Below, one piece after another: positions 24,127 to 61,981 of a stretch of DNA of 61,981 nt. The position numbers were made by a program, and so were the translations under genes. Within the stretch, counting starts at the first letter, position 1; each line of letters opens with the position of its first letter. The DNA comes from a virus. Lineage: Duplodnaviria > Caudoviricetes. The notes below the pieces were generated by a model. That model searched no databases. It saw nothing but the letters and a program-made list of their open reading frames with translations, and was not told where the DNA came from. Location: the IMG/VR virus record IMGVR_UViG_3300033076_000890, positions 1 to 61,981 of that record; one strand, written 5' to 3'.

Positions 24127-24135
24127 TTGTTTTTC

Positions 24136-24912: not shown

Positions 24913-24922
24913 TTTATTTCTC

Positions 24923-42841: not shown

Positions 42842-42843
42842 TA

Positions 42844-42987
42844 TTACACCCACTTCTGCCCGTCATTTATTTGGGCAATTAATAAACGTTCGTCTTTGAT
42901 TTCTCGCAATATGCTAACTACGTGCATCATGAGATAAACATGTGCAATTGCGCAAATTGAGACGATGATTGAAACTGCTACACCCAT
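42844..42987 (-). CDS. small membrane protein (47 aa, not in ORF track)
   Basis: MGVAVSIIVSICAIAHVYLMMHVVSILREIKDERLLIAQINDGQKWV fills the terL-portal gap. Confidence 0.65.
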   Translation of the reverse strand: MGVAVSIIVSICAIAHVYLMMHVVSILREIKDERLLIAQINDGQKWV

Positions 42988-44720: not shown

Positions 44721-45429
44721 CTACTATTTCTGCATCCATAATGTCATCTTGTTGATATTGCTTTAGTAATTTAGCAAATCCAGCCTTTATGCCATTTAAC
44801 TCATCTACATTCCTGACGTGTTGTTTGACGACACCAAGTATCTGCATAGCTAAACTATACGCTTGGTCAACTTCAAGTGTGTATGCCTTTGTATGCATCA
44901 TACGTGCTTCTGCTTCTACTAATTCTGTGCGCTTGTCTATTAATTGAACAACATCTTGACTTGCTTTATACAAGTCAATACCTTCATTTATAATCTTTCC
45001 AAGTTGTTTAAACGCTGGCATAAATTCATCTGTGCCGTATGTTGCACGACATACATTCATTTGATCTTTAATTGATTCATAGTGCTCAACAGAAATTCCA
45101 TTACTAGCAGCTTCAGCACGTACGTCCATCAATGCTGTTAAATACGCAGCATCATCTCGCAGTGAAAATAAATCTGGATCTTCCCTTAACTCATCAATAC
45201 GTGTAAGTAGCGTAGGTGCAACTTGACTGAATCGACGCCTTTGCTTACTCCATAATCCAGTTTTAAATGCTGGATTATCTACGCCTGTTAACGTTTTTCC
45301 ACCATGATGGATGCAAAATTCACGTCCAGTCACAGCTATATTTTTACATTTCTCACCGTTTCTTTTTTGTGATGAGCACAGTTTTATTTTTGCTCCATTG
45401 ACTTCACGAATTGCTATTTCAGTTGTCAT
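44701..45429 (-). CDS. terminase small subunit-like (HGGxSTG domain)
   Basis: C....RNGEKC.N.A..G...C.HHGGKT...N.AFKTGLWSK; directly upstream of terL. Confidence 0.7.
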   Translation of the reverse strand: MTTEIAIREVNGAKIKLCSSQKRNGEKCKNIAVTGREFCIHHGGKTLTGVDNPAFKTGLWSKQRRRFSQVAPTLLTRIDELREDPDLFSLRDDAAYLTALMDVRAEAASNGISVEHYESIKDQMNVCRATYGTDEFMPAFKQLGKIINEGIDLYKASQDVVQLIDKRTELVEAEARMMHTKAYTLEVDQAYSLAMQILGVVKQHVRNVDELNGIKAGFAKLLKQYQQDDIMDAEIVDEQDTE

Positions 45430-46265
45430 TAGTTACCAGATAAAAACTTTTGTAGATTTTGTTGAAATGCGTTTTTTAATTCGTTTCCAACAAACTTAGC
45501 ATCACGAACACCACCACTAATTGACCGTCTTACGTTACTGTTGATATCAGTAGCAACACCGACAGCATTTTTTGTTATTCTATCTACTGTTGGATGAACA
45601 TTTTTTGGCAGGATATTTTTCAGTGGTTGTGAAAAAAATTGGTTTATGTCACCTTTTTGGTTTATTAATTTTTCTCTTTCATAACCTTCCATGCTAGTTA
45701 CATCATCTGCTGCTCCCGGTTGCTGTGCAATCATCTCTAACAGTGGAAGTATTTCAGAATACTGTGCTTGCATTTTCCCCTGATTAAAAAATGAATCTAC
45801 TGCTTTTGTAGCGTCAGCTGCTTTTTCACCAAGATTTCTGTCAAATATCTGTTCACGCATACCGCCATATACAGGATTCATCAACGCTCCTTTTAGGGCA
45901 AATACTCCAGATTGAACATTAGGATTAGCTGCTGCTGATACACCTTTTGTTGCAAGCAAGGCCATTAATGCTTTTAAGCCAGCATCAGTAGTTATATCCA
46001 ATCCAAGAGTGGCTGCAGTAGAAAGCAATGCGTTCATACGTGCATCTCGTGGCATGTCTGGATGAAATGCTTGTCCAAGTTGTGGTTTTTGACTGCCAGC
46101 AAGTGACAGGTCGCCAATAATTCTTCCGCCCATACCGGGCGCTACAAATTGACCAATTGTTGCAGTTGGTGCTGAATACATTTGCAATAAATCAGCAGTT
46201 TTTTTATCAAGTTCTGGGCCAGGTTGAGGTCTACGAGATGTTTTTGTTTGTTTACCTTGAGGCAT
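45429..46265 (-). CDS. hypothetical protein (possible internal virion protein)
   Basis: 278 aa, coupled to neighbours. Confidence 0.7.
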   Translation of the reverse strand: MPQGKQTKTSRRPQPGPELDKKTADLLQMYSAPTATIGQFVAPGMGGRIIGDLSLAGSQKPQLGQAFHPDMPRDARMNALLSTAATLGLDITTDAGLKALMALLATKGVSAAANPNVQSGVFALKGALMNPVYGGMREQIFDRNLGEKAADATKAVDSFFNQGKMQAQYSEILPLLEMIAQQPGAADDVTSMEGYEREKLINQKGDINQFFSQPLKNILPKNVHPTVDRITKNAVGVATDINSNVRRSISGGVRDAKFVGNELKNAFQQNLQKFLSGN

Positions 46266-49200: not shown

Positions 49201-51496
49201 TTCCTAATGTAAATGTATTTCGCTTGCTAAGTTCTTTAAATCTTACATCTGTTTGCAGTTGCTTCATTAAAGCGTTCGGGTTTTCAGCAGCTTCAAGCAA
49301 TGATTGCATTTTTAGAATATATTTGCGATCATCAAAACTAATAGGTGAACCAGACTTTGATGTTACTTGTAATACAGAATCTGGGTGATTTGTTAACCTA
49401 AAATTAGTTGTTTTTCCCTCTGGAGCTTCACCAGATGTTAACGCTTGCGTTGTTGCTAAACGAGGTGTTGCAAAGCCAAACAATGAAGAAGGAACACCTT
49501 GTTCTGCAAATAAAGCACCGAGTAACTGATGTGGAGTCATTTGTGTGCGCAATGGTTTTGCGTCACGTTTAATTTCTGCTTCAATGATGCGCTGTTCTGA
49601 AGCTCGCATATTACTGACTAATTCTGATCCAGCACCAGTAGAAACACCAACTGTGCGACCACTGTCGTATCCTTCTACTCCAGTGTCTCCATACATCATT
49701 TGTAAGGCTTGTGTTGTGTAATAGGGAGCAGCTTTTTTAGCAGCAGCAGCATTATTGTTATTTTGCTGATCTATTTGAGCTGCTTGCATGTCTTTTACGT
49801 AATCAGCCTCACGTCCAGAAAAATTTGGTTCTGTAATCTGACGCAATGTTGCAGCAATGTCAAACTGACCACCAAAACGTCTTGCAACAACATCATTTCC
49901 CATAGCTTCGTTAAAGCTAAAGGCTTTACCCATGTTGCGACGCTCATACATGTCGGCAACATCCATATAAATAGAATCAACTATATTTCTGCGCACGGTG
50001 TTAGATTCTGTCCAGTCTACTGATGAGACACCTTCTGGCTGAGGCATAGCCAATGGACCTAACACACTTGTTGCAATATCACGTGCAGTAACAAACGCTG
50101 GCGCACTACCACGTGACATACTAGTAAGAACTTTATTAGCAACACCGCTAAGAGATTTATTGATACCTGTATAAACAGCGTCAAATCGACGACTTCTTGT
50201 TCGTTCTGCACGGTCTTTTTGTGATCCAAATTTAGTGGCAAAAACAGAATTTTCGTCACTACTCATTGCATCCATTAATTCCGGAGATACATCATAAACA
50301 TCTTGAGGACGATAGTCTGGGTCTCCAGCTAATTTAAATAAATCAACTGCATCATTAAATGTTTGAGTACTATGTTTTGAACCCGGTTTAGATCCACGAT
50401 CAAAATAGTCTGCTATGGCAGCAAGTCCATCATTTAATAAACGCTTCTGTCCTTCAGTACGACCACTGCCTTGTAATTGATTATAGGTCTCTAGTATTTT
50501 GTACATAGGGCTATTGCGATCAGCATCAGTAGCACTATTGAACACTCGCCGAGCAGCTTCAGGTAAACTTACACCCGCAGTAATAGATGACCTTAATTTA
50601 CCAACCATAGTCATTGTTGAGATTTCATTACCTTGGAAAGATGATAACAATCCCTCACTATCTAAATTAGATGTAAATTTGCTTGACGTCGGTTCATTTT
50701 TAGCTGTATTAGCTCGTGTTTCAACATATTGTTGCGATGATGCTCCCGGAATGTAGTCTCTGCTAGGTGTAAATTTCTTTTCGCCCGGAGTAAACGGCTT
50801 ATCAAAATACTCAACAGCTTGCTTAAGGTTTCCGCTTTCGTCAAACATACTGCCAAATTCGATAGGTGTTTTTGGTTGAGGTGCTTCACCTTCTGTTGGC
50901 CTTGTTCCTTTTCCAAGCCATTGACCAAAAGATGGCGTTTGGCTTGGTGGCTGTGCTCTACTTTCTACATACTGAGTTCTAGCTTGTTCTAATTGTTGAC
51001 CAAATTGCCCAGCCTCTGGAGCATTTAATCTATTTTGTGCAGCACGATATTGTTCTTCTTCTTCTTGTGTTCGCCTTACTGGTACATCTAAATCATTTGA
51101 TTTTCCAGATCCGTACCTCTGTAAGAATGCACTGGCAATATTGCCAGCTTCACCTTTATATTCGCGCCCAATTTCCCCAGCACTAGTACTTAGGCCCGGC
51201 GCAAAAATTCCACTCTTTTCTGGTCTTACATCACGTATTGGTAAAGTTTCAGATGCAAACGACTTTGATAAATCACCTACATCTACAAGTGGTTTTTGTT
51301 GAGTTGTTCCTTCAAGGCGTTTATTGTAATCAGCCAATCTGGTTTTTAATTCGGAATCAGATCTAGCCTCTGCATCTTCAACTACTTGTTTTCCTTGTGT
51401 TGACACAGGTTTACGAGTTGTTTTAGTAGGTCGTACAACTTGACGACCACCTTTTTTTTCTTCGTCAACCATCATATTCATTAATGCAGAGGCCAT
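46265..51496 (-). CDS. large hypothetical protein (1743 aa; possible capsid cargo)
   Basis: Long ORF with AGGAG RBS; PEPT linker and coiled coil near the C-terminus; no catalytic motif recognised. Confidence 0.8.
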   Translation of the reverse strand: MASALMNMMVDEEKKGGRQVVRPTKTTRKPVSTQGKQVVEDAEARSDSELKTRLADYNKRLEGTTQQKPLVDVGDLSKSFASETLPIRDVRPEKSGIFAPGLSTSAGEIGREYKGEAGNIASAFLQRYGSGKSNDLDVPVRRTQEEEEQYRAAQNRLNAPEAGQFGQQLEQARTQYVESRAQPPSQTPSFGQWLGKGTRPTEGEAPQPKTPIEFGSMFDESGNLKQAVEYFDKPFTPGEKKFTPSRDYIPGASSQQYVETRANTAKNEPTSSKFTSNLDSEGLLSSFQGNEISTMTMVGKLRSSITAGVSLPEAARRVFNSATDADRNSPMYKILETYNQLQGSGRTEGQKRLLNDGLAAIADYFDRGSKPGSKHSTQTFNDAVDLFKLAGDPDYRPQDVYDVSPELMDAMSSDENSVFATKFGSQKDRAERTRSRRFDAVYTGINKSLSGVANKVLTSMSRGSAPAFVTARDIATSVLGPLAMPQPEGVSSVDWTESNTVRRNIVDSIYMDVADMYERRNMGKAFSFNEAMGNDVVARRFGGQFDIAATLRQITEPNFSGREADYVKDMQAAQIDQQNNNNAAAAKKAAPYYTTQALQMMYGDTGVEGYDSGRTVGVSTGAGSELVSNMRASEQRIIEAEIKRDAKPLRTQMTPHQLLGALFAEQGVPSSLFGFATPRLATTQALTSGEAPEGKTTNFRLTNHPDSVLQVTSKSGSPISFDDRKYILKMQSLLEAAENPNALMKQLQTDVRFKELSKRNTFTLGRTKNLDIVQNEYGDMARGARVVSGSQSSLETMADVVSDLKQLMRIPADENGVLYVDKAGAEMYDTAKAMQTRLKTNLDMYEKRGDEYVLTSSKASADFPSILTPDQYTNLRGALGQLNSLITSADDIRSQVGGIGVSTGFQLKADGTPDYMRPRQVTGSARLDQTLDMLDHWASGGSDINFKKLFSGINLVEGARQSTRSTVQLMPVDVNGRTINDKNLIKSYDVDPKTGTANVQQYQLKDGRYVPVIGEDGKPKTVRVRTNQQTERVGVSTVATQSASQGKYGLPANYIVSSFNQLHAELNTAFKNFPEAVDSFAKYVLFTGDQNVIDQLSNTGITQQELQRVVTDMSRRQGSALHSILEIARGRDFKPDSRAPGTMNGTSGPRSSESRLERDVVNKVDAGDRRAAEDIIIQNHKTKIQSAFATARNIYLQEGSGLDKEAQISRIVKTVLEDRTGDADITPELRPAFEQAVKDQVTSLVYDDKNNSRARMSFMDAVYGYAGDVVAKQAEAGNIKSAPSVSGAGVDIGEGKGRVADRKTSRKNLVSTAITDAINILNFAPDSRARASLRAARHPFTDGIVMAIENYEKATTTNAKNEALSDLVQRIARAKNAGITLPESDTALVRAGADMQGLNLRVEELNLSPADKRKLDILRKRAALREAKLKPKTTPEPTPEPTPEPAKPQPKATKSAVDLTKMSSADISTATRKIIRDIKTANSDLDNARTELQALRKVKPIKSKVDEHRQKIASAEENIRQLELQIGGLNDDKDKYVKAISAAKVREEQEAIAAAAKAGNRVRVKINNGLAITITNSDWHPGYLDILESANSVFNRNGKVMTKADAVKVLVKAGIPENQANGLLLEVGAGQSAGFNRGQLKDKKYAIVAQDKAKYAAMGGRIANSLFKSDTGLAEQRAAFTPSSKNAAPIATQKPVVSPAKPQSRADAMRASMRGAKGKGIGSAMTLWGLLKTTSDALDQRSK
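47160..47199. repeat. 12-bp tandem repeat encoding a TPEPTPEPTPEP linker
   Basis: (GTTGGTTCCGGA) x2 plus a degenerate copy. Confidence 0.8.
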
Positions 51497-51505
51497 ATAT
51501 TTCTC

Positions 51506-52168
51506 CTACTTTTTGACAGGAATGCCGAGGGCTTTAGTAATTGGTGCACGATTTGGACCAGCTTTAGCTGTAGATGTTTTTGCCGTTGGTCCCTTAGACA
51601 TAGCACCTTTTTTAGGTGGCATTACGGACTGAGCAGACGTTGCTTGTCCACGCTCGTTAAACATGCGTCCCTGACGTTGCCCGATAATCTGCTCGCGTGA
51701 ACCAATATTAGGTGATGGCGCACCTTGTGTACGTGTCTGGGACTTAGCTTTATTAATTTCCGCTTCATTTAATGTGAAGGCATCACTCATGGCAGTAACA
51801 GCGCCTAATCCTGCAGCAATTGCTCCACCTGTACGTCCAGCTCCACGCATACGTGATCGCATTGCATTGCGTCGCTGTTCAGCACGGAATTGATTTGTTT
51901 TACGTGTATTGAGCATCTGCTGGCGCATCTTGCCAGCCATATTAGCTTGGCGTTTATTTTCATCAGAAGAAACTGCCATTGCTTGTACTGCCGGAGAAGC
52001 TCCAGATCGAGCAACATTTTCTCCAGTAACACTACGACTAATGGTTGGGTCCATATTAAAACGTCTTCGAGTAAAACTCTTTGCCGATTTTGGCGCACGT
52101 TCCATTTGAGTTCCAGCTCGTCGCCCTTTTCGGAGAGCTGCATTTACTTGAGGTGGTCTTGCTGGCAT
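51506..52168 (-). CDS. basic low-complexity protein
   Basis: 220 aa R/K/A-rich; AGGAGG RBS. Confidence 0.75.
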   Translation of the reverse strand: MPARPPQVNAALRKGRRAGTQMERAPKSAKSFTRRRFNMDPTISRSVTGENVARSGASPAVQAMAVSSDENKRQANMAGKMRQQMLNTRKTNQFRAEQRRNAMRSRMRGAGRTGGAIAAGLGAVTAMSDAFTLNEAEINKAKSQTRTQGAPSPNIGSREQIIGQRQGRMFNERGQATSAQSVMPPKKGAMSKGPTAKTSTAKAGPNRAPITKALGIPVKK

Positions 52169-52178
52169 ATTATGCCTC

Positions 52179-52337
52179 CTACTTTACTTTACGTAAGCGT
52201 GGGTTTTTCCGCTTAGCCGTAACGGATGCTTTACGTGTTGATGCAGCAAGAATTGCACCTGCTGCTTTTTGGCTAATACCCTGTTTTGAAGCAATGGTGT
52301 TTTGCACAGCTTTAAAACCGGGATGCTTTTTTAACAA
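52179..52337 (-). CDS. small basic protein (52 aa, not in ORF track)
   Basis: KKHPGFKAVQNTIASKQGISQKAAGAILAASTRKASVTAKRKNPRLRKVK; TTG start assumed; fills the gap. Confidence 0.65.
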   Translation of the reverse strand: MLKKHPGFKAVQNTIASKQGISQKAAGAILAASTRKASVTAKRKNPRLRKVK

Positions 52338-52528
52338 CTGCAGGAAGCCTTTCCGCACTTAGGACATTTTTTGCCATTTCCATATTCTGCTTTTTCGTGC
52401 TTTGCTAACATTTTTGCTGACATACCTTTTTTACTGTATTCACGTTTTTCGGCAGCAGCCATAGATTTACTCATATTTTTATGGCCACCCATTTTGATGC
52501 CCATCATCTGACCCATTGTTTTTCTCAT
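52331..52528 (-). CDS. small basic protein with C-terminal CxxCxxxxCxC
   Basis: ATGA overlap with upstream gene; K/M-rich. Confidence 0.7.
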   Translation of the reverse strand: MRKTMGQMMGIKMGGHKNMSKSMAAAEKREYSKKGMSAKMLAKHEKAEYGNGKKCPKCGKASCSC

Positions 52529-52776
52529 TTGCAATTCCATGCCCTTAATGACTTATTGATCCGACTATTTGGATCATTAGCGGTTTTTGCAGACGTATTT
52601 TTAGCTTTCATGCCTGACATACGTGCACAAAAAGAGGCACGACGACCAGCGTCTGCCTTTGTTTTTGGGTTTGGTGCTGGAGGTTTTAAATTAGCTCCAG
52701 TCGTGCGTTTAAAATAAGCACGTCCTGCAGCATTCAGTCCTCCAGATGGATTTTGATACTTTTTTACAACTCCCAT
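52525..52776 (-). CDS. DUF6321-like small basic phage protein
   Basis: NPSGGLNAAGR...NLKPP...RRASFCARM...DPNSRINKSLRAWNC. Confidence 0.75.
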   Translation of the reverse strand: MGVVKKYQNPSGGLNAAGRAYFKRTTGANLKPPAPNPKTKADAGRRASFCARMSGMKAKNTSAKTANDPNSRINKSLRAWNCK

Positions 52777-52801
52777 GCGTACACCTCAATCCATTATACA
52801 T

Positions 52802-52830
52802 AAAAAAGACCCGCATATAGCGGGTCGTTT
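52802..52830 (-). terminator. intrinsic terminator after ssb, abutting a TATAAT
   Basis: - strand GACCCGC-TATAT-GCGGGTC-TTTTTT. Confidence 0.75.
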
Positions 52831-52832
52831 GC

Positions 52833-53222
52833 TTAGTCAGCAAATGGATCATCAATATCATCAACTTGTATCTTATTAGTTGATTTTTGATTTGACGGTG
52901 GTTGATCACTATCTTTGCGCGAGTCAAGTAATTGCCAATTGTCAATGATAATTTTTACTGTTTGTTGCTTAGCGCCTTCTTTGTTGACATATTGCTCTAG
53001 CTGAATTTTTCCAACAATGCCAATTAATCGTCCTTTTTGAGCGTATTCTGCAAGTGCATCACCCTGCTGTCCAAATGCCGTGCAACTAAAAAAGTCTGTT
53101 TCCTTTTCGCGCCCCTTGCGATCAACGGCTACTCGAATACTACACACAGACTTTCCATTTGGCGTCTGTCTTGACTCAGGATCAGCAACTAATCGCCCAA
53201 CGATTGTGCACTGATTAATCAT
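52833..53222 (-). CDS. ssb: single-stranded DNA-binding protein
   Basis: INQCTIVGRLVADPE...KGRLIGIVGKI; acidic DDIDDPF tail. Confidence 0.95.
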   Translation of the reverse strand: MINQCTIVGRLVADPESRQTPNGKSVCSIRVAVDRKGREKETDFFSCTAFGQQGDALAEYAQKGRLIGIVGKIQLEQYVNKEGAKQQTVKIIIDNWQLLDSRKDSDQPPSNQKSTNKIQVDDIDDPFAD

Positions 53223-53871
53223 TATTTCCACTCTCCTCTTTCATCCAATATTGTTTAAACGCTTTAGTTGTTACTGGAAGTACTTCTGTTAGCACGTTCC
53301 AGCAATCATTTGCAATTTCTCTGTGTTCTTGTTGCGTATCCGCCTCCATGCGCACATGACAATAATGCAACCAATCTCGCACAGTGCCTTTCATGTACAA
53401 ACGCGTACCAACACACAACGGTAACACCATTCTTGCAGACTCTAACGCAACGCCAGACTTAATTAAGTCATCATAAGCTCGCACAGCAACCAAAATTGGA
53501 GCAAGCGCTTTATTATCCATTTGAAATTGTGTTTCTTGATCCTCAAATTCAACACTTCCCTGCCTATTTGTGTTGCCTTTTCGCCTCATTTTCGGTAAAT
53601 CTAGCTCAATTTTACTGGCAACAGCGTACCTTTGACTGAATTCCTGAAAATGAAAGCTTCTGTGACGCAGAATTTGCGCTGAAACAGCTCTAGATGTGTA
53701 AATTTCCATCACAACATCCACCATTTGGAATACGGACCAGTGTCCTTTACGCATGCAGTATCGCAATAGTTTTTCAAATTCAGGATTATCTTCATTATCG
53801 GATGAAATCCGAGCTAAATGAATCATAAATTCTTCGGCGTCGGGTTGAATATATTTAAGTGTGGCTGCCAT
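53215..53871 (-). CDS. thyX: FAD-dependent thymidylate synthase
   Basis: RHRSFHFQEFSQRY motif, HWSVFQ, QQEHREIA; likely start MAATLKY with GGAGG. Confidence 0.95.
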   Translation of the reverse strand: MAATLKYIQPDAEEFMIHLARISSDNEDNPEFEKLLRYCMRKGHWSVFQMVDVVMEIYTSRAVSAQILRHRSFHFQEFSQRYAVASKIELDLPKMRRKGNTNRQGSVEFEDQETQFQMDNKALAPILVAVRAYDDLIKSGVALESARMVLPLCVGTRLYMKGTVRDWLHYCHVRMEADTQQEHREIANDCWNVLTEVLPVTTKAFKQYWMKEESGNND

Positions 53872-53881
53872 TTTTCCTCCA

Positions 53882-53962
53882 TGCCTCAGACGGGACTCGA
53901 ACCCGTACGTCTTGCGACAACGGATTTTAAGTCCGTCGTGTCTACCATTCCACCACCGAGGC
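53882..53962 (-). tRNA. tRNA-Leu (anticodon TAA)
   Basis: GCCTCGG...TGGTAGAC...ACGGA-CTTAAAA-TCCGT, long variable arm, GGTTCGAGTCC, CTGAGGC-A; CCA not encoded. Confidence 0.93.
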
Positions 53963-54072
53963 TGATGGCATATTGTATCACCATGTAATACATGATAGTA
54001 TACAAACAAGACGCGATGATAGTTTAAAAAGTCAGCCCATCATGCCTTAGAGACATTTAAACCGAGCGAATT

Positions 54073-54101
54073 AAAAGCCCCTTCACAGAGGGGCTTTTTT
54101 T
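54073..54101. terminator. bidirectional intrinsic terminator
   Basis: AAAAGCCCCT-TCACAG-AGGGGCTTTTTTT. Confidence 0.8.
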
Positions 54102-54357
54102 ATTTTACTGAGTGGTCACTATTTCGTTTGAATGACCTATTAGCGGATGGACTTTTAAGTATTAAGTTACTCATTGAGTTTGAGCCACCTTTAGATAGTG
54201 GTTTTTTATGATCAATATCTTTGCCTGAACGATCAATTCCTTTAGCATCCATAGCACGGCGAGCGCGTTGCCTATCCATTCGTAATGGATGTTCCCCTCG
54301 TGCTTTTTGCTGTTGGTATTCCTTTTTATATGGTCGAGCTTTATTTACGTATGGCAT
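54100..54357 (-). CDS. small HNH endonuclease
   Basis: KDIDHKKPLSKGGSN...NL......NRS. Confidence 0.85.
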   Translation of the reverse strand: MPYVNKARPYKKEYQQQKARGEHPLRMDRQRARRAMDAKGIDRSGKDIDHKKPLSKGGSNSMSNLILKSPSANRSFKRNSDHSVK

Positions 54358-54734
54358 TACTTCACCTCTGCTTCAGCTGTTATTTTTTTCTTTGTTCCAC
54401 CAAAGTACTCGTATGTACCCATAGTCTTCATGATTTCTACATTGAGTGTTGATGGAGACCTATCTGTTTTGACATGCACTAATCGTCGTCCGTATTTATC
54501 TGCTTTTTGCAACACTTGAATGCTAAATCGTTCGGCTGTATTTTGCCTTGAGTTGAACCATTCTTTTGCTGCTTCTGCAGCTGCCTTACCTGCTTCAGTG
54601 TTCTTCTCTGGTGTATCCACGCCAAAGAGACGACAGTGCTGATCCACAAGCCAAATACCAAAGCCGAGATCAATATCACAAACAAAGGTATCGCCATCGA
54701 TAAGTCGTTTGTATCGTATTCCATATTCATACAT
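54357..54734 (-). CDS. thermonuclease (SNase-like) family protein
   Basis: MYEY...IDGDT...DIDLGF...RLFGVDTPE...DKYGR; TATAAT lies 6 nt before the ATG at 54734. Confidence 0.88.
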   Translation of the reverse strand: MYEYGIRYKRLIDGDTFVCDIDLGFGIWLVDQHCRLFGVDTPEKNTEAGKAAAEAAKEWFNSRQNTAERFSIQVLQKADKYGRRLVHVKTDRSPSTLNVEIMKTMGTYEYFGGTKKKITAEAEVK

Positions 54735-54749
54735 AGATGCATTATAACC

Positions 54750-54780
54750 AAAAAAGACCAGCGTGGCTGACTGGTCTTTT
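54750..54780 (-). terminator. intrinsic terminator abutting a TATAAT
   Basis: - strand AAAAGACCAG-TCAGCCACG-CTGGTCTTTTTT. Confidence 0.7.
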
Positions 54781-54941
54781 CTGTTTGCAGAGTACGTGTA
54801 AGTCGGGCAGGGCCTGGAGTTTCCTGCTTTCATACATAAAGCTCACCTATCGGTGGCAAAAATATAATACCACCCTGCAGCAGAAAGAGTAAGAACTGCA
54901 GAGTGGTATTTCCCAGTGCGTTTTCATGCATGGGGAATCGG

Positions 54942-55160
54942 TTACTTCTTGATTTTTAGAAGGCTAGACACATTCTTTTTTGCTGCATCTGCTGCCATCT
55001 GTCGTTTGAGTGCAGCTGTTTCAGGGAAGTTTCTATTGACGCGGTATGAGTTGTTAGCGCTAATTTGTGCCTGTGATCCAAGAGTGTCAATTACGTCATT
55101 GCGCTTTGATTTTGGCGCACGAGCAATTGCATCTGCATAAGGGCGTTTATTCTGTGGCAT
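54942..55160 (-). CDS. small basic hypothetical protein
   Basis: 72 aa, GAGG RBS; TATAAT just after the tRNA-Asn 3' end. Confidence 0.65.
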   Translation of the reverse strand: MPQNKRPYADAIARAPKSKRNDVIDTLGSQAQISANNSYRVNRNFPETAALKRQMAADAAKKNVSSLLKIKK

Positions 55161-55196
55161 AACTTAACCTCACTAAACCATGGTTATGTGATTATA

Positions 55197-55268
55197 CTCC
55201 TACTGCTGGGATCGAACCAGCGACCATTCGGTTAACAGCCGAACGCTCTACCGCTGAGCTAAGTAGGA
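55197..55268 (-). tRNA. tRNA-Asn (anticodon GTT)
   Basis: TCCTACT-TAGCTCAGCGGTAGAGC-G-TTCGG-CTGTTAA-CCGAA...GGTTCGATCCC...AGTAGGA-G. Confidence 0.95.
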
Positions 55269-55275
55269 AAACAAA

Positions 55276-55719
55276 CTATTCTATTGCTCCTTTGAGCCAT
55301 TGGCTAACTCGATCTGCGAAAGGTACGTCAGGTAATGCGTTATCGCACTTCTCACGAACCAACTCTGATTCCGTTTGCTGACCTTCGACTGTATAGCTGT
55401 CAACATTTCCGGTGTCATCCGCAGAACGAACATGCACGGATAGTTGACGTCTCGTTGCTTTCTTGTTTTCATCATCATCCCCTTGCGCCAACCTTTGACT
55501 TAAGCGCATAACGTCAATGACGTTAACAGCACAGTCAGTATCTTTACTTACAGCATATGCAAGGAACCACATTGCTTTAAGGACATCGTCCTCGTATGCA
55601 GCCCCTTTCTTCTTACCTGCCCTAGCAAGATATGCAACAGCAGTAAATAGATACCTATCAAGGTTCCACGCGTCAGCTGCGTGTACTGGCTGTAATTCGC
55701 TTTCATTGTAATACGCCAT
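55276..55719 (-). CDS. DUF3310-like protein with C-terminal extension
   Basis: AVAYLARAGKK....EDDVLKAMWFL. Confidence 0.7.
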   Translation of the reverse strand: MAYYNESELQPVHAADAWNLDRYLFTAVAYLARAGKKKGAAYEDDVLKAMWFLAYAVSKDTDCAVNVIDVMRLSQRLAQGDDDENKKATRRQLSVHVRSADDTGNVDSYTVEGQQTESELVREKCDNALPDVPFADRVSQWLKGAIE

Positions 55720-56178
55720 CTATACCCCCGTAGATCCAAATCCACCAGCACCACGTGGAGTCTCATCAAACAACGAGCCATCTTTAAGCACTACTGGAGT
55801 ACAAAGTGATACAGGAGCTACAACAAGCTGCGCAATACGCATGCCGGGCACAAACGTAAATGTCTCATCGCTCATATTTTTGATGATGACCTTTACCTCA
55901 CCTGTGTAATCAGCATCCACTGTACCGGGGCTGTTAAGCACAACGATCCCGTGTTTGTAAGCCATACCGCTGCGAGTACGTACCTGAGCTTCATAACCAT
56001 CCTCCAACTTGATCTTCATACCAGTTGGAATCAACATGATCTGCCCCGGTCTAATAGTGACGTTGCGCTCAGCAATGTACTGCAGGTCTATTCCTGATGC
56101 TTTCGCTGTAGCGCGTTGTGGATTAAATAAATACTCGCAAGACCGAGCACCGCAATAAATAATTTCAAGGCTATCCAC
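55720..56178 (-). CDS. dut: trimeric dUTPase
   Basis: ASGIDL, RSGMA, GTVDADYTGE, RIAQLV, RGAGGFGSTG. Confidence 0.97.
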   Translation of the reverse strand: MDSLEIIYCGARSCEYLFNPQRATAKASGIDLQYIAERNVTIRPGQIMLIPTGMKIKLEDGYEAQVRTRSGMAYKHGIVVLNSPGTVDADYTGEVKVIIKNMSDETFTFVPGMRIAQLVVAPVSLCTPVVLKDGSLFDETPRGAGGFGSTGV

Positions 56179-56438
56179 TACTCCGCTGCTCCAGCATCAA
56201 ACGTAGTAACAATGCTATCCAGCGCCATCATCAAAAAATCAATTACAAACCGAGCTGGAATTTTTACACCGTCATTGCGCAAATTAGCACAATACTGAGC
56301 AGCCTCTACAAGCGACAGCCCAGTCTGGTACTCAGGAACATTGCCGTCATCCTTGCGCTTCACAGTAACCGAATACCCATGCTTAGCACTTTGCTGCACA
56401 GTTACTTCACTGTCATTACCCTGCGTTAATAAAAACAT
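56178..56438 (-). CDS. hypothetical protein
   Basis: 86 aa, GAGGTG RBS; first gene of the - strand arm. Confidence 0.75.
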   Translation of the reverse strand: MFLLTQGNDSEVTVQQSAKHGYSVTVKRKDDGNVPEYQTGLSLVEAAQYCANLRNDGVKIPARFVIDFLMMALDSIVTTFDAGAAE

Positions 56439-56492
56439 AGCACACCTCTATATATGTATAACATATGGTACCACAATTGTATGGATCCTAAT

Positions 56493-56528
56493 TTCTCCGT
56501 TGGGAGAAGATGTTCTCCGATGGGAGAA
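56493..56528. promoter_or_regulatory. tandem palindromic operator pair
   Basis: TTCTCC-GTTG-GGAGAA and TTCTCC-GATG-GGAGAA, 20 bp apart, upstream of a - strand TGnTACCAT. Confidence 0.6.
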
Positions 56529-56708
56529 ATGTATAGAAAAGCTGAGAGAATATATCTGTCGGAGTCACAACTAACTACTGATTGAGAGGGCAGGGGGTGA
56601 CTGGTGGGTGGGCGGCTGGCGGGGGATGGCCATGGGCTATCTAAGCAACGGCTCTACGGTTGCACCTCATGTGTGTCGGTAGCGTGCAGTTCGCTCCCGG
56701 CGGATGCG

Positions 56709-56739
56709 GACGGGATGAAGCGGACGGCTTCATCCCGTC
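56709..56739. repeat. perfect 13-bp inverted repeat in the early leader
   Basis: GACGGGATGAAGC-GGACG-GCTTCATCCCGTC. Confidence 0.85.
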
Positions 56740-56810
56740 TTATTCGTTTCCGTCCGCTTTTGTTTGGATTCGTTTCTGTTTGGGTTTGCCGATACTTAGG
56801 AGGTATCACC

Positions 56811-57152
56811 ATGTCAACGTCAATCGTTCGTGCGTTTCTCACTCACGCCGCTGAAACCGACCTGCCAATCAGCAGGGACGCCGCTATCCGCATGAAACAG
56901 GCGGAAATCGGCGAGATTCGCGCCGCTCGCCTCGGTGCCGATGCCATTGAGGCGGCACGTGCAAAGTCGGTCGGTGTGTGCAAAAAAGTGGTCACCGACC
57001 ACTACACCGATGGTCTCAACGACCTTGAGTTCATCACCGACGCGATGCGTGTCCTTGCTGATGCATGGGGCAAGGGCATCGAGAAGGTCGATGTCCCCGA
57101 GAGCGTCAAGTTGGCGAACTCGGAACTGTTGGCTTGGAGGAAGACCCTCTAA
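56811..57152 (+). CDS. first early protein (hypothetical; possible host-takeover/anti-defence factor)
   Basis: Strong TAGGAGGT RBS, GC-rich codons, 113 aa. Confidence 0.8.
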   Translation: MSTSIVRAFLTHAAETDLPISRDAAIRMKQAEIGEIRAARLGADAIEAARAKSVGVCKKVVTDHYTDGLNDLEFITDAMRVLADAWGKGIEKVDVPESVKLANSELLAWRKTL

Positions 57153-57159
57153 GCCAGCC

Positions 57160-57192
57160 ACTACCCGGTACAACCAACCGGGTAGTTTTTTT
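57160..57192 (+). terminator. intrinsic terminator
   Basis: ACTACCCGGT-ACAACCA-ACCGGGTAGT-TTTTTT. Confidence 0.8.
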
Positions 57193-57254
57193 ATATATAT
57201 ATTGGGGTACTCGTGGCGACGAGTGCCCCTTTATCTTTTTTCATGGAGTTCATT

Positions 57255-57491
57255 ATGCATGCTGTTGATGTTTGCATTCAGCGAAACGAGTTGGTTATGG
57301 GTTTGTTGCAGATGGAGTGTCAGATAAAGAATCTGCGTGTCAGTATCAACCGCCTTCAGTTGGTTGAGCCTATCCTTGGCACGGAGGAACATACAACTTG
57401 GCATGCAGAGTTGTGTGACTTGCAGGACACACTGCATGCTGTTGAGAGTACGTTGGGTTTGGCGCGTAGAGCGCAGAAAAGGAGTGCGTAA
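57255..57491 (+). CDS. hypothetical coiled-coil early protein
   Basis: GGAG RBS before ATG 57255. Confidence 0.7.
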   Translation: MHAVDVCIQRNELVMGLLQMECQIKNLRVSINRLQLVEPILGTEEHTTWHAELCDLQDTLHAVESTLGLARRAQKRSA

Positions 57492-57832
57492 TGTACATCG
57501 CATTTTGGTGGTCTCTTGTTTGTGCGTTGCTCTGGTTGGTGGCATTCGTGGAGATGATTGTCACTCGTGGTCAAGGCGTTGTATGCCGTGACATCTTCCT
57601 GTTCTCTTGCTTGGCATACGTCATCATCGTGGTGGCTGCCATTGTCAAGGCCAGTTGGCCGTGGATGAAACGCAACGCAACAAAGTGTTGGATTGGTGCG
57701 TGTTGGCTTGCCATCTTTGGTGGCATGTGGTTCGCACATACGGTTGCTCAAGCCGACCTTGAGCGTCAGCATCAGGTAGAGATTGAGAACATGCGTCATG
57801 ACATGTATGTGAACAATGAGGTGACACGATGA
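57491..57832 (+). CDS. membrane protein (3 TM), early
   Basis: AAGGAG RBS, TAATG coupling, three hydrophobic helices. Confidence 0.75.
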   Translation: MYIAFWWSLVCALLWLVAFVEMIVTRGQGVVCRDIFLFSCLAYVIIVVAAIVKASWPWMKRNATKCWIGACWLAIFGGMWFAHTVAQADLERQHQVEIENMRHDMYVNNEVTR

Positions 57833-58035
57833 TTGGAAAAGACGGGTTGTTTCGTACCACGTTTTACCGTGGCATTCGCAGTGTTGGTGGCAAGCGTAAG
57901 TTTGTCACCATCTCTATGATTGGTGAGCGTCAGTTCGAGTTTACAATAGGGCGATTCCTGCCTAGTGTGCATGTTGCACATTGGTTGGGCGGAACGCTTG
58001 AGGAGTTCATCGACACCACGCTTGAGTGGATGTGA
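57829..58035 (+). CDS. hypothetical early protein
   Basis: GAGGTG RBS, ATGA overlap. Confidence 0.7.
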   Translation: MIGKDGLFRTTFYRGIRSVGGKRKFVTISMIGERQFEFTIGRFLPSVHVAHWLGGTLEEFIDTTLEWM

Positions 58036-58082
58036 TGACAACGAGGGGTGCGACTCGTGAACGCACAAAGAAGGAGACTGCT

Positions 58083-58319
58083 ATGGCAGCAAAACAAAAG
58101 GCTGGTATGTCCAGCAAGCAGTGGGTCATGAAGACCCCAACGATGTCCGCCCACACCACGCTGATGTGCTGTGAGCCTGATGATATCAGCGACTCAATGC
58201 TCGCTGAGTTGGAGCGCGAGGAGCTGGCGGATCACAAGATCTACGTCACCTCGCCCGATGACCGACTCCTTGCGTTGTACAGCGGTACACGCACACGAAA
58301 TCGGAGCGGTCGGTTCTAG
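58083..58319 (+). CDS. hypothetical early protein
   Basis: AAGGAG RBS before ATG 58083 (alternative start 58035). Confidence 0.65.
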   Translation: MAAKQKAGMSSKQWVMKTPTMSAHTTLMCCEPDDISDSMLAELEREELADHKIYVTSPDDRLLALYSGTRTRNRSGRF

Positions 58320-58320
58320 T

Positions 58321-58349
58321 GGGGATGGGCGCAAGCCCTCCCCTTTTTT
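58321..58349 (+). terminator. intrinsic terminator with GCAA loop
   Basis: GGGGATGGGC-GCAA-GCCCTCCCC-TTTTTT. Confidence 0.8.
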
Positions 58350-58382
58350 ATTTTTATTTTTTGTTTGAGTCTAGGAGTTTAT

Positions 58383-58928
58383 ATGAAACTGAAAACCGTG
58401 CTCGTTGAGAGCCTACTCGTCGTTAACCCAGAACTTGCACCATTTAAAGAAATGTGGGTCGGGTTCATTGAGAAAGTAATCACGGCTGACGCTATCTATC
58501 CGTTTGCTGATTACATGATGAAACGAACAGATAACATTGACTACGATAAACATTGTCGTGTTGTTCTTGGTAGTGTGCTTGCTGGTCGCATTGACCACTA
58601 TCTCTACTTCCAGAACTGCAGGCATAACCTAATTCAGGGTTGGCCATATTGGGTAACAAACCCAGATGTCAAAGACTTGGTGCCAATGAACAGCATAACC
58701 GAGGGCATTACCCTGCGAAGTGAGGCGGGTTCGTACCAAGTCATGGTGCAACAGTACGTTGATATACTCGATGTTCGTGTCTTGACAGACGTAAACATTG
58801 GAAGCATGTCAGTAATGACAACAAGGCCCACTGATGAGGACTGGGATATGTACCTCGCAATGGCTGAAGTTTTCATCGAACAAAAGCGAGAAGAAGCTGA
58901 CCGTCTCGACTTCAGTTACAACAACTAG
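58383..58928 (+). CDS. hypothetical early protein
   Basis: AGGAG RBS before ATG 58383; 181 aa. Confidence 0.75.
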   Translation: MKLKTVLVESLLVVNPELAPFKEMWVGFIEKVITADAIYPFADYMMKRTDNIDYDKHCRVVLGSVLAGRIDHYLYFQNCRHNLIQGWPYWVTNPDVKDLVPMNSITEGITLRSEAGSYQVMVQQYVDILDVRVLTDVNIGSMSVMTTRPTDEDWDMYLAMAEVFIEQKREEADRLDFSYNN

Positions 58929-58938
58929 ATCACACACA

Positions 58939-58963
58939 GGGAGGCGCAAGCCTCCCATTTTTT
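58939..58963 (+). terminator. intrinsic terminator with GCAA loop
   Basis: GGGAGGC-GCAA-GCCTCCC-ATTTTTT. Confidence 0.8.
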
Positions 58964-58979
58964 ATTTAAGGAGTTCAGT

Positions 58980-59471
58980 ATGCCAAAGAATAAATACGGT
59001 ATGGAAACAATGCCAGCAAACCCAATGACTATACACACGGCATGGGTTGCTAAACTCGTATCCCAAGATGAAGACTACGAGTGGACAACCGAATTGCTGT
59101 GCGTGTCACAAGACTACGACACTGCACACAAAGCATTCATCGACGCACTACCAGACAATATTCTGGGTTGGCAAATGCGATATCGATACTGGAATCAAAA
59201 GACGCTTGATAAGGTAATCGAGATTTACCCAGACTTTCAATCGTACCCTTGGCTCAAGGTATACGAAGCTCGGTTTGGTGGCACTGAGGATAAGCCACTC
59301 TATTCCCTTGATCGTGTATGGGATGTGGAAGAAGGGGAAGAAAAACCTCTTACCTTTGAACAGAAAGTTCAACTGTATGAACTGCTTGGTTCTTACTGGG
59401 ACAACACAAGCAATAGTCACTGTGAATACAAACTGGAAAAGATGGCGCTCGTGCCACTAGGAGTTAAATGA
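58980..59471 (+). CDS. hypothetical early protein
   Basis: AAGGAG RBS; 163 aa. Confidence 0.8.
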   Translation: MPKNKYGMETMPANPMTIHTAWVAKLVSQDEDYEWTTELLCVSQDYDTAHKAFIDALPDNILGWQMRYRYWNQKTLDKVIEIYPDFQSYPWLKVYEARFGGTEDKPLYSLDRVWDVEEGEEKPLTFEQKVQLYELLGSYWDNTSNSHCEYKLEKMALVPLGVK

Positions 59472-59725
59472 GTATGATTATCAGATCGCCCGAACGGGCA
59501 CGTGCAATCATGCACGACATTGCACACATCACACATGGATATGTACAAACATTATCCAATGGCACACACGACACGTTTATTAAAGTCACATCAACTAAAG
59601 GTGACATTGCACTGTGGTCACATGACATTGATGACTGTGAGATTGTAGTTATTCGTGAACACCCTAATGTGTCACGTTATCTACTTAACTTGGAAACACG
59701 AAGACAACTAAGGAGAATGCTATGA
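59468..59725 (+). CDS. hypothetical protein
   Basis: AGGAG RBS, ATGA overlap. Confidence 0.7.
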   Translation: MSMIIRSPERARAIMHDIAHITHGYVQTLSNGTHDTFIKVTSTKGDIALWSHDIDDCEIVVIREHPNVSRYLLNLETRRQLRRML

Positions 59726-60081
59726 GTCTTGACCTTGACCTCAGTAAACTAAAAATGCCAGCTAACCGCTGGCGAACAAACCTATGGCAGATCATCGATA
59801 CACCCGGTGGAATCAAGGATGTTCTGCACAAAGAACGAACAGCCGTTGGACACAAAGATAACAAAGGCGGGTTCTGGTTGCTGGCGTTTGAAGACATTGA
59901 ACACGCTGGAACCGTGTGCAAAGAATACGAAGAACAAGTGAAACACGAAGCACACATTGTGTCCGTCAATGTTTACTCACTGCCAGAAGACTGGAACCTA
60001 CGGTTGTACCGTATGGATGGCACGTGGATAGACATCCAACAGTGGGACTACCTGCAGCGATTGCATGAACAAAATAGGTAG
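59722..60081 (+). CDS. hypothetical protein
   Basis: AAGGAG RBS, ATGA overlap. Confidence 0.75.
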   Translation: MSLDLDLSKLKMPANRWRTNLWQIIDTPGGIKDVLHKERTAVGHKDNKGGFWLLAFEDIEHAGTVCKEYEEQVKHEAHIVSVNVYSLPEDWNLRLYRMDGTWIDIQQWDYLQRLHEQNR

Positions 60082-60096
60082 TTAGTCATCGTTACG

Positions 60097-60197
60097 GAGG
60101 GGTCAAATATTACACCCCTCTAATTTTTGTAGGGGGGAGGGGTCGGATTTTACCCCCCTCATTATATTGAATAATAATCAATGTAATACATATAATG
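60097..60197. other. candidate replication origin (two iteron-like palindromes plus AT-rich tract)
   Basis: GAGGGGTC-N9-(A/C)CCCCTC twice, 40 bp apart, then ATTATATTGAATAATAATCAATGTAATACATATAAT. Confidence 0.45.
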
Positions 60198-60219
60198 TAT
60201 CCGACACAAGGAGTTAGTC

Positions 60220-60597
60220 ATGGGTAAGTTAAAGTTGGCAATCGACAGCATCGAAGCATTGAGTGACGCACAGAAGTCTGTGCTTGTGAGAACTGGCATC
60301 ATTCGCATCGAGCCTACCGTCGCAGAGGAACAACTCTGGCAGATTGCATTGGTCATGCTTGACCGCTCTTATATCGCCGAACTACTTGGGCTTCAGCTGT
60401 CTACGTTCAATACGTATCTCGCAGACGAATATCGTTGCACCAAGATGAAAGAAAACCTGTTCATCAAACTTGGCAATGTCATCTCACAACGTGACATCAC
60501 TGTTGTACATAACATCTACACCAAGTTGAGCAAGCACCTTGAAAAGGTACACAACGACAAAGTTTGCGCTGAGTTTGTAAAGGAGCAAGAAGGATAA
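60220..60597 (+). CDS. putative HTH DNA-binding protein
   Basis: DRSYIAELLGLQLSTFNTYL HTH-like segment; AAGGAG RBS. Confidence 0.6.
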   Translation: MGKLKLAIDSIEALSDAQKSVLVRTGIIRIEPTVAEEQLWQIALVMLDRSYIAELLGLQLSTFNTYLADEYRCTKMKENLFIKLGNVISQRDITVVHNIYTKLSKHLEKVHNDKVCAEFVKEQEG

Positions 60598-60601
60598 TCA
60601 A

Positions 60602-60910
60602 ATGCTACACATTGGAGACAAAGTGTGCAATGTACGCCGTCCCGACAAAATCGGGACGGTTGTTTCATTAGATGCACCAAACAACAAATGGATGTCACGA
60701 CCTGAAGATATGCGTGTGCTAGTCAAATACGAACAACTATCTAAACGTTCTAATGGAACATGGAAATCAGGCATCCTTGATGAGCTACCCGTAGATCTTC
60801 TCCGCAACGGAGAAACTGTTCCAGATGCATTTCAACAGTTTAAACGTAGTGGTGATGAAGGAGGTATACACATCCGCATGTTAGCTAATGAAAGAAAGAA
60901 AAGACGATGA
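60602..60910 (+). CDS. hypothetical protein (KOW/SH3-like start)
   Basis: LHIGDKV......IGTVV. Confidence 0.7.
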   Translation: MLHIGDKVCNVRRPDKIGTVVSLDAPNNKWMSRPEDMRVLVKYEQLSKRSNGTWKSGILDELPVDLLRNGETVPDAFQQFKRSGDEGGIHIRMLANERKKRR

Positions 60911-61026
60911 TTTATTTAATTTTATGCACATTGATTGCAATCACTTCAATCTTTTCGCTGTTTGGTTGGCTTTATGTGTCAATCAATAACTATCAACGAC
61001 GTATCGATAAAGGAGAAACAGAATGA
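60907..61026 (+). CDS. small membrane protein (39 aa, not in ORF track)
   Basis: MIYLILCTLIAITSIFSLFGWLYVSINNYQRRIDKGETE; ATGA overlaps at both ends. Confidence 0.7.
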   Translation: MIYLILCTLIAITSIFSLFGWLYVSINNYQRRIDKGETE

Positions 61027-61232
61027 CACTGAAAGATAAAAAAGTAGCGTATTGGAAATGGGTAAACGACATGGTTCTCTTAAATGAGATGACTAATATG
61101 TTCTTGCCTAAGTCACTTAGAGCTGACTTTAAAAAAGAATTGCCTGACACTGACGATGTCGAAACACAGTATCAATTCATGCTTACCTACAATGCAAATA
61201 AGGCTAAGCAACTACGGGAGGAAATGAGTTAA
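61023..61232 (+). CDS. hypothetical protein
   Basis: AAGGAG RBS. Confidence 0.7.
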   Translation: MTLKDKKVAYWKWVNDMVLLNEMTNMFLPKSLRADFKKELPDTDDVETQYQFMLTYNANKAKQLREEMS

Positions 61233-61606
61233 TGAATTTACGTAATGAATACATAGCACCGCAGCTTGCTGCGTCATTAGTGTATGCACATGCTAGACAG
61301 GGATACACACACGCATTCACAAGAATGGGCATGCGCACTGGCGTAACAAGTTTTGATAAAGATAGGCCATATGCTTTGACTCAAACACTAAGAGTTGAGT
61401 TAGAAACGTACGAGCCATATCAAGCATATCAATTTACGGTTGATTGCGACCTTATTGATAAAACAGAAGGGCAAGTTCGCATTAATGGTGCACACTTCCA
61501 TGAAGTGTATGTATTTGAAAGCGATGCAAATGCCATAGAAGCATGGATCACACAATTCAGAATGTGGCTTAGGTCACAGTTAGAAAAGGACACAAATAAT
61601 GATTAA
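61232..61606 (+). CDS. hypothetical protein
   Basis: GGAGG RBS, TAATG coupling. Confidence 0.75.
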   Translation: MNLRNEYIAPQLAASLVYAHARQGYTHAFTRMGMRTGVTSFDKDRPYALTQTLRVELETYEPYQAYQFTVDCDLIDKTEGQVRINGAHFHEVYVFESDANAIEAWITQFRMWLRSQLEKDTNND

Positions 61607-61913
61607 ACATTACAAAGTTTTGATTTTACGTTTTGCTTACCTCCACATTCATCCGGGTGGAGGTTTCGAGAAGCTCATCAAGCTTACACCGCAGTTCCAG
61701 CAATTCCTCGATAAAGAGGCTCGTATGTTTCTTGCAGAGTTGCTTGACTTTGCTGATGCTCATGTGCCTCATGATTGTAGAAACGTAATGGGATTCGATG
61801 ACTGGCTCGGTGATGAGCCAACACATGAAGAACATCTACAGTTTGACAAATGGTTATCTGTTCTTCAAGAGGTACCGAAAGGTTGGGAGGAAGTAGATAC
61901 TAGCCATGGCTAA
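61599..61913 (+). CDS. hypothetical protein
   Basis: AAGGA RBS, 104 aa. Confidence 0.75.
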   Translation: MIKHYKVLILRFAYLHIHPGGGFEKLIKLTPQFQQFLDKEARMFLAELLDFADAHVPHDCRNVMGFDDWLGDEPTHEEHLQFDKWLSVLQEVPKGWEEVDTSHG

Positions 61914-61950
61914 TCGTCCATACAGTTATACTTGCCAGTGTTATGACTTT

Positions 61951-61981
61951 GAGGGCCGAGAATTCGGCCCTCCTACTCTTT
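61951..61981 (+). terminator. hairpin, possible terminator at window end
   Basis: GAGGGCCGA-GAAT-TCGGCCCTC followed by CTACTCTTT. Confidence 0.45.

Follow-up and report, generated by a model that had tools for sequence, protein, structure and literature searches.

We analysed the whole of the IMG/VR virus record IMGVR_UViG_3300033076_000890 (61,981 bp, 41% GC, estimated to be ~97% complete; hereafter the window), a phage genome of the Caudoviricetes in which the first seven open reading frames (ORFs) of the rightward arm contain no TTA leucine codon and which encodes its own tRNA-Leu(UAA). The TTA deficit of these early-type ORFs is a codon-level property that exceeds, in this genome, the prediction from GC content at third codon positions (GC3), and among related phages high TTA use in late genes goes with possession of the tRNA gene. 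We consider it probable that early TTA avoidance reflects temporal codon compensation, a type of system already known from other phages: a cassette presumably translated first would stay readable for the tRNA pool of the host, and later genes would draw on tRNA supplied by the phage. An earlier note on this DNA had drawn attention to the missing codon and had read it as a timing switch resembling that of the Streptomyces tRNA bldA. Its observation was confirmed, and its interpretation was partly supported.

The TTA deficit of the early ORFs lies in the reading frame

Recounting of the seven ORFs (56811-59471, + strand; Table 1) gave no TTA among 74 leucine codons, where the earlier note had counted 0 among about 73 by hand. 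The leucines are encoded by TTG (20), CTT (17), CTC (17), CTG (15) and CTA (5). TTA makes up 65 of the 265 leucine codons in the rest of the rightward arm and 500/1113 in the late genes, in agreement with the previous statement that the codon is frequent afterwards, and several later genes carry it at codons 2-5. The individual examples proved correct as well: in-frame TTA first appears in the arm at 59552, the gene at 1593 opens with ATG TTA CAA GAA TTA, and codon 5 of the lysin gene (8034-8819, - strand) is TTA. If TTA were used as in the late genes, finding none in 74 would have a probability of 6e-20; with the frequency of the remaining rightward arm the probability is 9e-10, and it rises to 0.0005-0.0015 at the early-gene rates of relatives and to 0.006 at the 6.7% of the candidate host described below. 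These and all other tests of the deficit are post hoc, being applied to a pattern that the earlier note had picked out.

The seven ORFs are richer in GC3 (0.44-0.70) than the late genes (~0.26), and local GC is 0.46-0.50 in the cassette to which they belong vs 0.37-0.44 elsewhere in the genome. The earlier note had allowed that higher local GC explains part of the pattern, and indeed it does not explain all of it in this genome. A-ending codons are otherwise retained in the seven ORFs, at 43% for Lys, Glu and Gln together (56/130), 58% of Pro (CCA) and 30% of Ala (GCA). The TTA:TTG ratio of 0:20 differs from the A:G ratio of 56:74 at Lys, Glu and Gln (Fisher p=8e-5), and 0/20 TTR codons has a probability of 1.3e-5 at the A-ending share of these amino acids or 4.6e-4 at the combined GTA and CTA share (15/47). 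When TTA share was modelled from GC3 by logistic regression on all other genes of at least 60 codons, an extrapolation past most of the training range, 10.4 TTA codons were expected in the first eight genes and 1 was observed (P=1e-4).

A second codon behaves in the same way. AGA encodes only 1 of 48 arginines in the seven ORFs (2%), and ATA encodes 11% of isoleucines. For both TTA and AGA the depletion is confined to codon phase, the trinucleotides occurring 0/8/6 times and 1/24/18 times, respectively, in the three phases; this points to translation rather than to avoidance of a DNA motif. We conclude that the deficit in the early ORFs is a codon-level one. The zero itself is the low extreme of a low rate (~7-10% of Leu) and no obligatory rule.

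These counts depend on the seven ORFs being genes. They tile the + strand with overlapping stops and starts, and their frames are better kept in the relative G002 than the antisense ORFs over the same DNA (91% vs 77% and 60% vs 47% identity). We therefore took the + strand ORFs as real; the antisense ORFs arise from the locally high GC. The product of ORF 1 has orthologues of 88% identity in G002 and 76% in the relative G001. For ORF 2 the choice of start matters: the longest form, from GTG 57213, would include one in-frame TTA (57231), which is excluded by the likely starts at ATG 57243 or ATG 57255, the latter with GGAG 6 nt ahead of it. No PHROG family was matched by the seven ORFs or by three others, neighbouring or antisense, and a Pfam search of the same ten ORFs gave a single sub-threshold match (IRK, 16.5 bits, cut-off 22.7).

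Late TTA use follows the tRNA gene among relatives

ARAGORN and Rfam agree on exactly two tRNA genes in the genome, tRNA-Leu(UAA) and tRNA-Asn(GUU), bearing out the claim that one of only two phage tRNAs reads UUA. The tRNA-Leu(UAA) gene is intact and conserved in seven relatives. The eight phage copies differ by compensatory changes in the acceptor stem, a pattern of substitution that indicates purifying selection.

We compared 18 genomes, namely the window, 16 viral records from IMG/VR and one 61-kb contig (G106:C8) from a bacterial genome bin; in IMG/VR, 80 of the 87 loci matching the portal gene were kept. ORFs of <60 codons were dropped from the codon tables of relatives. Eight genomes carry tRNA-Leu(UAA) (the window, here G000, together with G001-G005, G010 and G917) and nine do not (G006-G009, G918-G921 and G106:C8), two of these nine being only 74-84% complete; the eighteenth, G916, is cut at the relevant place and was not scored. 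TTA makes up 0.37-0.45 of late-gene leucine codons in 8/8 carriers vs 0.02-0.18 in 9/9 non-carriers. The contrast holds at equal late GC3: carriers G001 and G003 (GC3 0.31) have TTA shares of 0.37-0.40, non-carriers G919-G921 (0.31-0.32) of 0.16-0.17, so that carriers use the codon 2-3 times as much as non-carriers also when GC3 is matched. The early blocks of the carriers stay at the TTA level of tRNA-less relatives.

A similar relation was seen for a second tRNA. G005 and G010 also carry tRNA-Arg(UCU), adjoining tRNA-Leu, and have the highest late AGA shares (0.27-0.29 vs 0.08-0.21 in the others).

The tRNA module varies further among relatives, with a tRNA-Arg(ccg) gene in G009 (54099-54172, + strand) and genes for tRNA-Tyr and tRNA-Asn in G919.

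An Armatimonadota lineage is the best host lead

The earlier note had assumed a GC-rich host. This was not borne out, since the likely host lineage has ~51% GC, a tRNA-Leu(UAA) of its own and TTA at 6.7% of Leu. Portal homologues were found in 8/301 Armatimonadota genomes vs 0/301 from Bacteroidota and 5/301 from Bacillota (24-32% identity). The best portal match, at ~56-57% identity, is on the contig G106:C8 (61,217 bp; loci L211-L214), the terminase of which is 73% identical to that of the phage; this contig has 51.7% GC, no tRNA gene and TTA at 2% of late leucines. A further portal homologue, of 35% identity, lies inside the 7.6-Mb Armatimonadota contig G199:C1 near 6,444,567-6,446,009. Full-length homologues of the lysin in reference genomes were found on two contigs of Armatimonadota metagenome-assembled genomes (MAGs; L147, L148).

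The other contigs of the bin G106 have ~51% GC and use TTA for 6.7% of Leu (118 long ORFs), AGA for 9% of Arg and ATA for 12% of Ile; most tRNA anticodons found there are encoded once, including a single tRNA-Leu(UAA) gene. Both phage tRNAs are closest to those of G106 among 5 genomes tested. The codon usage of the seven early ORFs correlates with that of eight G106 contigs at r=0.78-0.85, and these contigs take ranks 1-8 among 57 reference loci, a convenience sample, above loci of similar GC3. On this lead, the phage clade probably infects Armatimonadota, with a candidate host lineage of ~51% GC.

A low-GC Bacteroidota host, to which late-gene codon usage points, was considered and rejected. 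A Shine-Dalgarno core precedes 38/71 of the longest-ORF starts vs 8% of random 17-mers, and the portal search among Bacteroidota, given above, was empty. Bacteroidota rarely use Shine-Dalgarno sites.

One of the two MAG contigs with a lysin homologue also encodes a homologue of the phage ORF at 2663-3046. Contigs 90-99% identical to the region 42000-61981 were present in aquatic and freshwater libraries (runs X1, X2 and X4), one of them a metatranscriptome, indicating that the clade is present, and possibly active, in fresh water. In the metatranscriptome (X4) the matches are short contigs of 90-99% identity over parts of both the early and the late regions; such contigs cannot give timing, strand or level, and DNA carry-over is possible. 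A limited literature search brought up no dedicated study of an Armatimonadota phage.

Temporal codon compensation as the probable explanation

The following scheme would account for these observations. The early cassette, ~3 kb of small ORFans at the start of the rightward arm, would be translated first and would have been kept in host-like codons and thus readable by the host tRNA pool alone. The phage itself, at 41% GC, probably infects a bacterium of higher GC, in which, if the Armatimonadota lead is right, TTA and AGA are minor codons. Both tRNA genes lie in an early-type leftward operon of nucleotide-metabolism and replication genes; since this operon ends in a terminator-like hairpin, the tRNAs would precede the structural genes. 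Middle and late genes, AT-rich and with TTA at 25-45% of Leu, would then draw on the added supply, and the same may hold for AAT, also heavily used in these genes, and for AGA in relatives. In keeping with compensation, the codon is commoner in the phage (45% of late Leu) than in the presumed host (6.7% in G106), and it is used more in late than in early genes, as these were assigned from gene layout.

Several points weigh against this reading. The absence of TTA is not conserved: orthologues of the seven ORFs have it at 10/119 leucines, and the early blocks of the six other tRNA-bearing genomes that retain this region at 36/370 (these counts exclude G003 and G916, in which the region is missing). 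The limits of this block in relatives, 2.7 kb, were set by the span in the window, and the genes of relatives were called with our own ORF-tiling script, which combines single-strand tiling with a score for amino-acid composition (right for 92-94% of 80-codon fragments cut from long ORFs). Just three of the seven tRNA-bearing genomes (G000, G004 and G005) have a deficit beyond GC3 with P<=0.05, the values in the others being 0.07 (G002), 0.12 (G010), 0.66 (G917) and 0.86 (G001), so that much of the clade-wide pattern is as GC3 predicts. In the portal tree the carriers form a single clade (100/100 support), and the association of tRNA and codon use therefore amounts to one evolutionary event. 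The order of expression is deduced from gene layout only. As for the host, the lead comes from MAG bins, one prophage-like match and codon similarity, and a phage contig in a bin is no proof of host; a search for spacer-like matches between 42000-61981 and 71 genomes of the order of G106 (4 candidates scored per genome) returned only tRNA matches and G106:C8, an outcome that speaks neither for nor against the lead; and the late genes use codons as a low-GC genome does (Flavobacterium locus, r=0.95), which taken alone suggests a different host.

The comparison with relatives that the earlier note had called for thus gave a divided answer. The tRNA is present in seven relatives and late TTA use is high in carriers, and the early deficit beyond GC3 appears in fewer than half of the carriers scored. 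None of the nine tRNA-less relatives showed an early-block TTA deficit beyond GC3, which leaves the proposed tie between tRNA and early avoidance standing; the strict zero, for its part, is peculiar to the window.

Alternative explanations for the early deficit

The cassette might owe its high GC3 to no translational selection at all, but to a hypervariable region that recombines often, with GC-biased repair, or to repeated import from higher-GC phages, the low TTA count being a by-product. We regard this as unlikely. The early cassette is indeed hypervariable: a search of 103 loci from IMG/VR, ten records of related viruses and the contig G106:C8 found homologues of the seven ORFs only in G001, G002, L001 and L003, and in one contig of a relative the cassette 56530-60079 has been replaced outright. 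The near-GC3 TTA counts of most relatives' early genes fit a neutral origin, as does the GC3-rich rightward arm of two tRNA-less genomes, G007 and G008. However, the deficit in the window is specific to TTA, AGA and the reading frame, with other A-ending codons still in common use, and the codon profile of the early ORFs fits a single genome, G106, better than it fits others with comparable GC3. High GC3 also survives in early orthologues of merely 37-50% amino-acid identity, and the first 2.7 kb of the rightward arm has GC3 of 0.50-0.57 in all six other carriers with the region (G001, G002, G004, G005, G010 and G917), unrelated early genes included. The GC3-rich block, since it recurs at the same place, is a lasting feature of the position rather than a recent import.

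The replacement was seen in run X2, where a contig joins the sequences at 56530 and 60079 across 2746 unrelated letters with sharp borders; this junction indicates that the whole early cassette was exchanged in a relative.

A second alternative is the codon gate proposed in the earlier note, in which a limiting phage tRNA-Leu(UAA) would act as a timer that switches on all TTA-containing middle and late genes and the early cassette would be strictly free of TTA. Part of that proposal stands: the deficit is real, frame-specific and beyond GC3 in this genome, the late genes are rich in TTA, in some cases from their first codons on, TTA use covaries with the tRNA, and the operon that holds the tRNA gene is of early type and is placed upstream of the structural genes. 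The candidate host, with a single tRNA-Leu(UAA) gene and a low share of TTA, would also suit a limiting tRNA. A strict, bldA-like gate is not supported, and we judge it quite improbable. Early orthologues and the early blocks of other carriers contain TTA, and G001 and G917 show no deficit beyond GC3. In the window, the leftward genes ahead of the tRNA-Leu gene use TTA for 9 of 41 leucines (five ORFs). UUA is not near-absent from the genes of the candidate host, itself uncertain, and since this bacterium has its own tRNA-Leu(UAA) and reads TTA unaided, such a gate would be leaky.

It is highly improbable that the phage tRNA replaces a host tRNA-Leu cleaved or depleted in infection, be it as escape from an anticodon nuclease, the defence that the earlier note had invoked, or as a remedy for a host tRNA pool that has been lost. 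Other phages provide established examples of both (van den Berg et al., Yang et al., via PMC12482277, in part), and an endonuclease gene adjoins the tRNAs, but the phage tRNA-Leu(UAA) has the same 7-nt anticodon loop as its G106 counterpart (67/81 identity overall) and so lends no support to escape from a tRNA-cleaving defence, two tRNAs fall far short of a replacement set, and the higher TTA use of carriers is more simply explained by extra supply.

Temporal codon compensation could also be taken further, in a form that we offer as speculative and consider unlikely. The cassette 56530-60079 would have to stay free of TTA and AGA, being translated on single-copy tRNAs of the host, and a module of 2-3 tRNAs from the leftward early operon (Leu-UAA, Asn-GUU and, in some relatives, Arg-UCU) would have allowed GC content outside the cassette to drift to 10 points below that of the host, with the supply of these tRNAs pacing middle and late translation. 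If so, the gain of a single tRNA gene would have altered codon use throughout a clade of phages, one that probably infects the little-studied Armatimonadota.

Relation to known systems

Differences in codon usage between early and late genes have been described in half of 14 phages (PMC5683454, in part). Phage tRNAs have been proposed to compensate for codon bias, to bear on host range, to replace a host pool that has been destroyed or to allow escape from nucleases, and these hypotheses were tested for Shigella phage Sf14, the late genes of which are best adapted to the phage tRNA pool (PMC12482277, in part). The present case resembles these in that a tRNA reads a codon which the phage uses often and its presumed host rarely, that the codon is commonest in late and structural genes, and that early genes are more host-like. 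It differs in its minimal set of two tRNAs, or at most three in relatives, far from a broad set covering most late codons; in having sister lineages with and without the tRNA; and in the complete absence of the codon from the early ORFs of one genome, host and timing being presumed from sequence.

In Streptomyces, bldA tRNA-Leu(UAA) controls genes containing TTA (PMC2000904, in part); UUA is exceptionally rare there, Streptomyces phages are usually without it, and one phage has been proposed to sense the state of its host via UUA (PMC10732093, in part). Codon and anticodon are the same here, and a rare codon might likewise delay translation of a subset of genes. Unlike that system, the present phage is rich in TTA and supplies the tRNA itself, and its candidate host uses TTA at an appreciable rate; the likeness to bldA is limited to the identity of the codon. 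Anticodon-nuclease escape (van den Berg et al., via PMC12482277, in part) is like our case in that the phage carries its own version of a tRNA present in the host, but here the anticodon loop is unchanged relative to the candidate host tRNA.

No new mechanism is revealed by these data. Their value lies in the minimal tRNA set, the contrast between sister lineages and the host lead. The clade offers a clean, small-scale case of co-evolution between phage tRNA and codons, with sister lineages that differ by one tRNA-Leu(UAA) gene and, for matched GC3, 2-3-fold in late TTA, and with a presumably first-expressed cassette that keeps to the level of the candidate host. The idea of early genes using the host pool and late genes the phage pool becomes testable with a single tRNA, where large phages have 20-40. 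Incidentally, the analysis links a widespread, uncultured clade of ~60-kb aquatic phages to Armatimonadota.

Genome layout and other features

Two arms diverge from an intergenic region (Table 1). The rightward arm (56811-61913) would continue at 10-8054 if the record is circularly permuted, and runs from the small ORFans through a Gam-like protein and a replication initiator to a DnaB-type helicase. The leftward arm begins with an 86-amino-acid (aa) ORF, dUTPase, a kinase-like ORF, tRNA-Asn(GUU), an endonuclease, an 85-aa ORF, tRNA-Leu(UAA) and SSB and reaches a terminator-like hairpin; beyond it, still leftward, follow a 1743-aa ORF, terminase, portal, major head protein, tail-type genes, a 4473-aa ORF and the CHAP lysin.

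Table 1. Positions in the window of the early cassette, the tRNA genes and the transcription-type units
Feature	Position	Strand	Remarks
Late arm	8034-52776	-	GC3 0.26; TTA 500/1113 Leu
Leftward early/middle-type unit	52808-56438	-	closed by terminator-like hairpin 52808-52826; TTA 9/41 Leu in five counted ORFs
tRNA-Leu(UAA)	53882-53962	-	81 nt; ARAGORN (cloverleaf) and Rfam (61 bits)
tRNA-Asn(GUU)	55196-55269	-	ARAGORN and Rfam
Divergent intergenic region between arms	56439-56810		two 16-nt motif copies and a 13-bp perfect hairpin
Swappable early cassette	56530-60079	+	GC3-rich, TTA-poor; exchanged for 2746 other letters in one contig of a relative (run X2)
Early ORF 1	56811-57152	+	113 aa; ORFan; GC3 0.70; TTA 0/10 Leu; Shine-Dalgarno-like AGGAGG before ATG
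Early ORF 2	57243-57491	+	82 aa; alternative ATG 57255; TTA 0/12 Leu, TTG 8/12
Early ORF 3	57491-57832	+	113 aa; TTA 0/8 Leu; G001 orthologue with 3 TTA
Early ORF 4	57829-58035	+	68 aa; TTA 0/5 Leu; G002 identity 91% vs 77% for antisense ORF
Early ORF 5	58026-58319	+	97 aa; alternative ATG 58083; TTA 0/7 Leu
Early ORF 6	58365-58928	+	187 aa; alternative ATG 58383; TTA 0/16 Leu
Early ORF 7	58980-59471	+	163 aa; TTA 0/16 Leu
First in-frame TTA of rightward arm	59552-59554	+	within ORF 59468-59725

Megablast of 56000-61981 and 20000-30000 against a reference phage collection gave no match, and tblastn of the portal against the same collection returned only 11 actinophage records, all at <24% identity. 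No PF00940 match was found in the record, but the control likewise gave none, which makes this negative uninformative. Two long ORFs of the late arm, of 4473 aa (8819-22240, - strand) and 1743 aa (46265-51496, - strand), matched nothing in Pfam or PHROG. Pfam matches of the lysin were weak, with an N-terminal CHAP domain below the family cut-off and a C-terminal copper-amine-oxidase-N-like domain just above it; a homologue search returned 80 proteins, none with an informative name.

The intergenic region contains two copies, 20 nt apart (56493-56508 and 56513-56528), of the 16-nt palindrome-like motif TTCTCCGNTGGGAGAA, which look like operators for a regulator of both arms. Early ORF 1 is preceded by a G-rich and GC-rich leader of ~200 nt (56590-56790) that includes a perfect 13-bp hairpin (56709-56739), and two terminator-like hairpins lie directly 3' of this ORF (57160-57229). 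The leader and hairpins matched no Rfam family; they may be signals for attenuation or processing.

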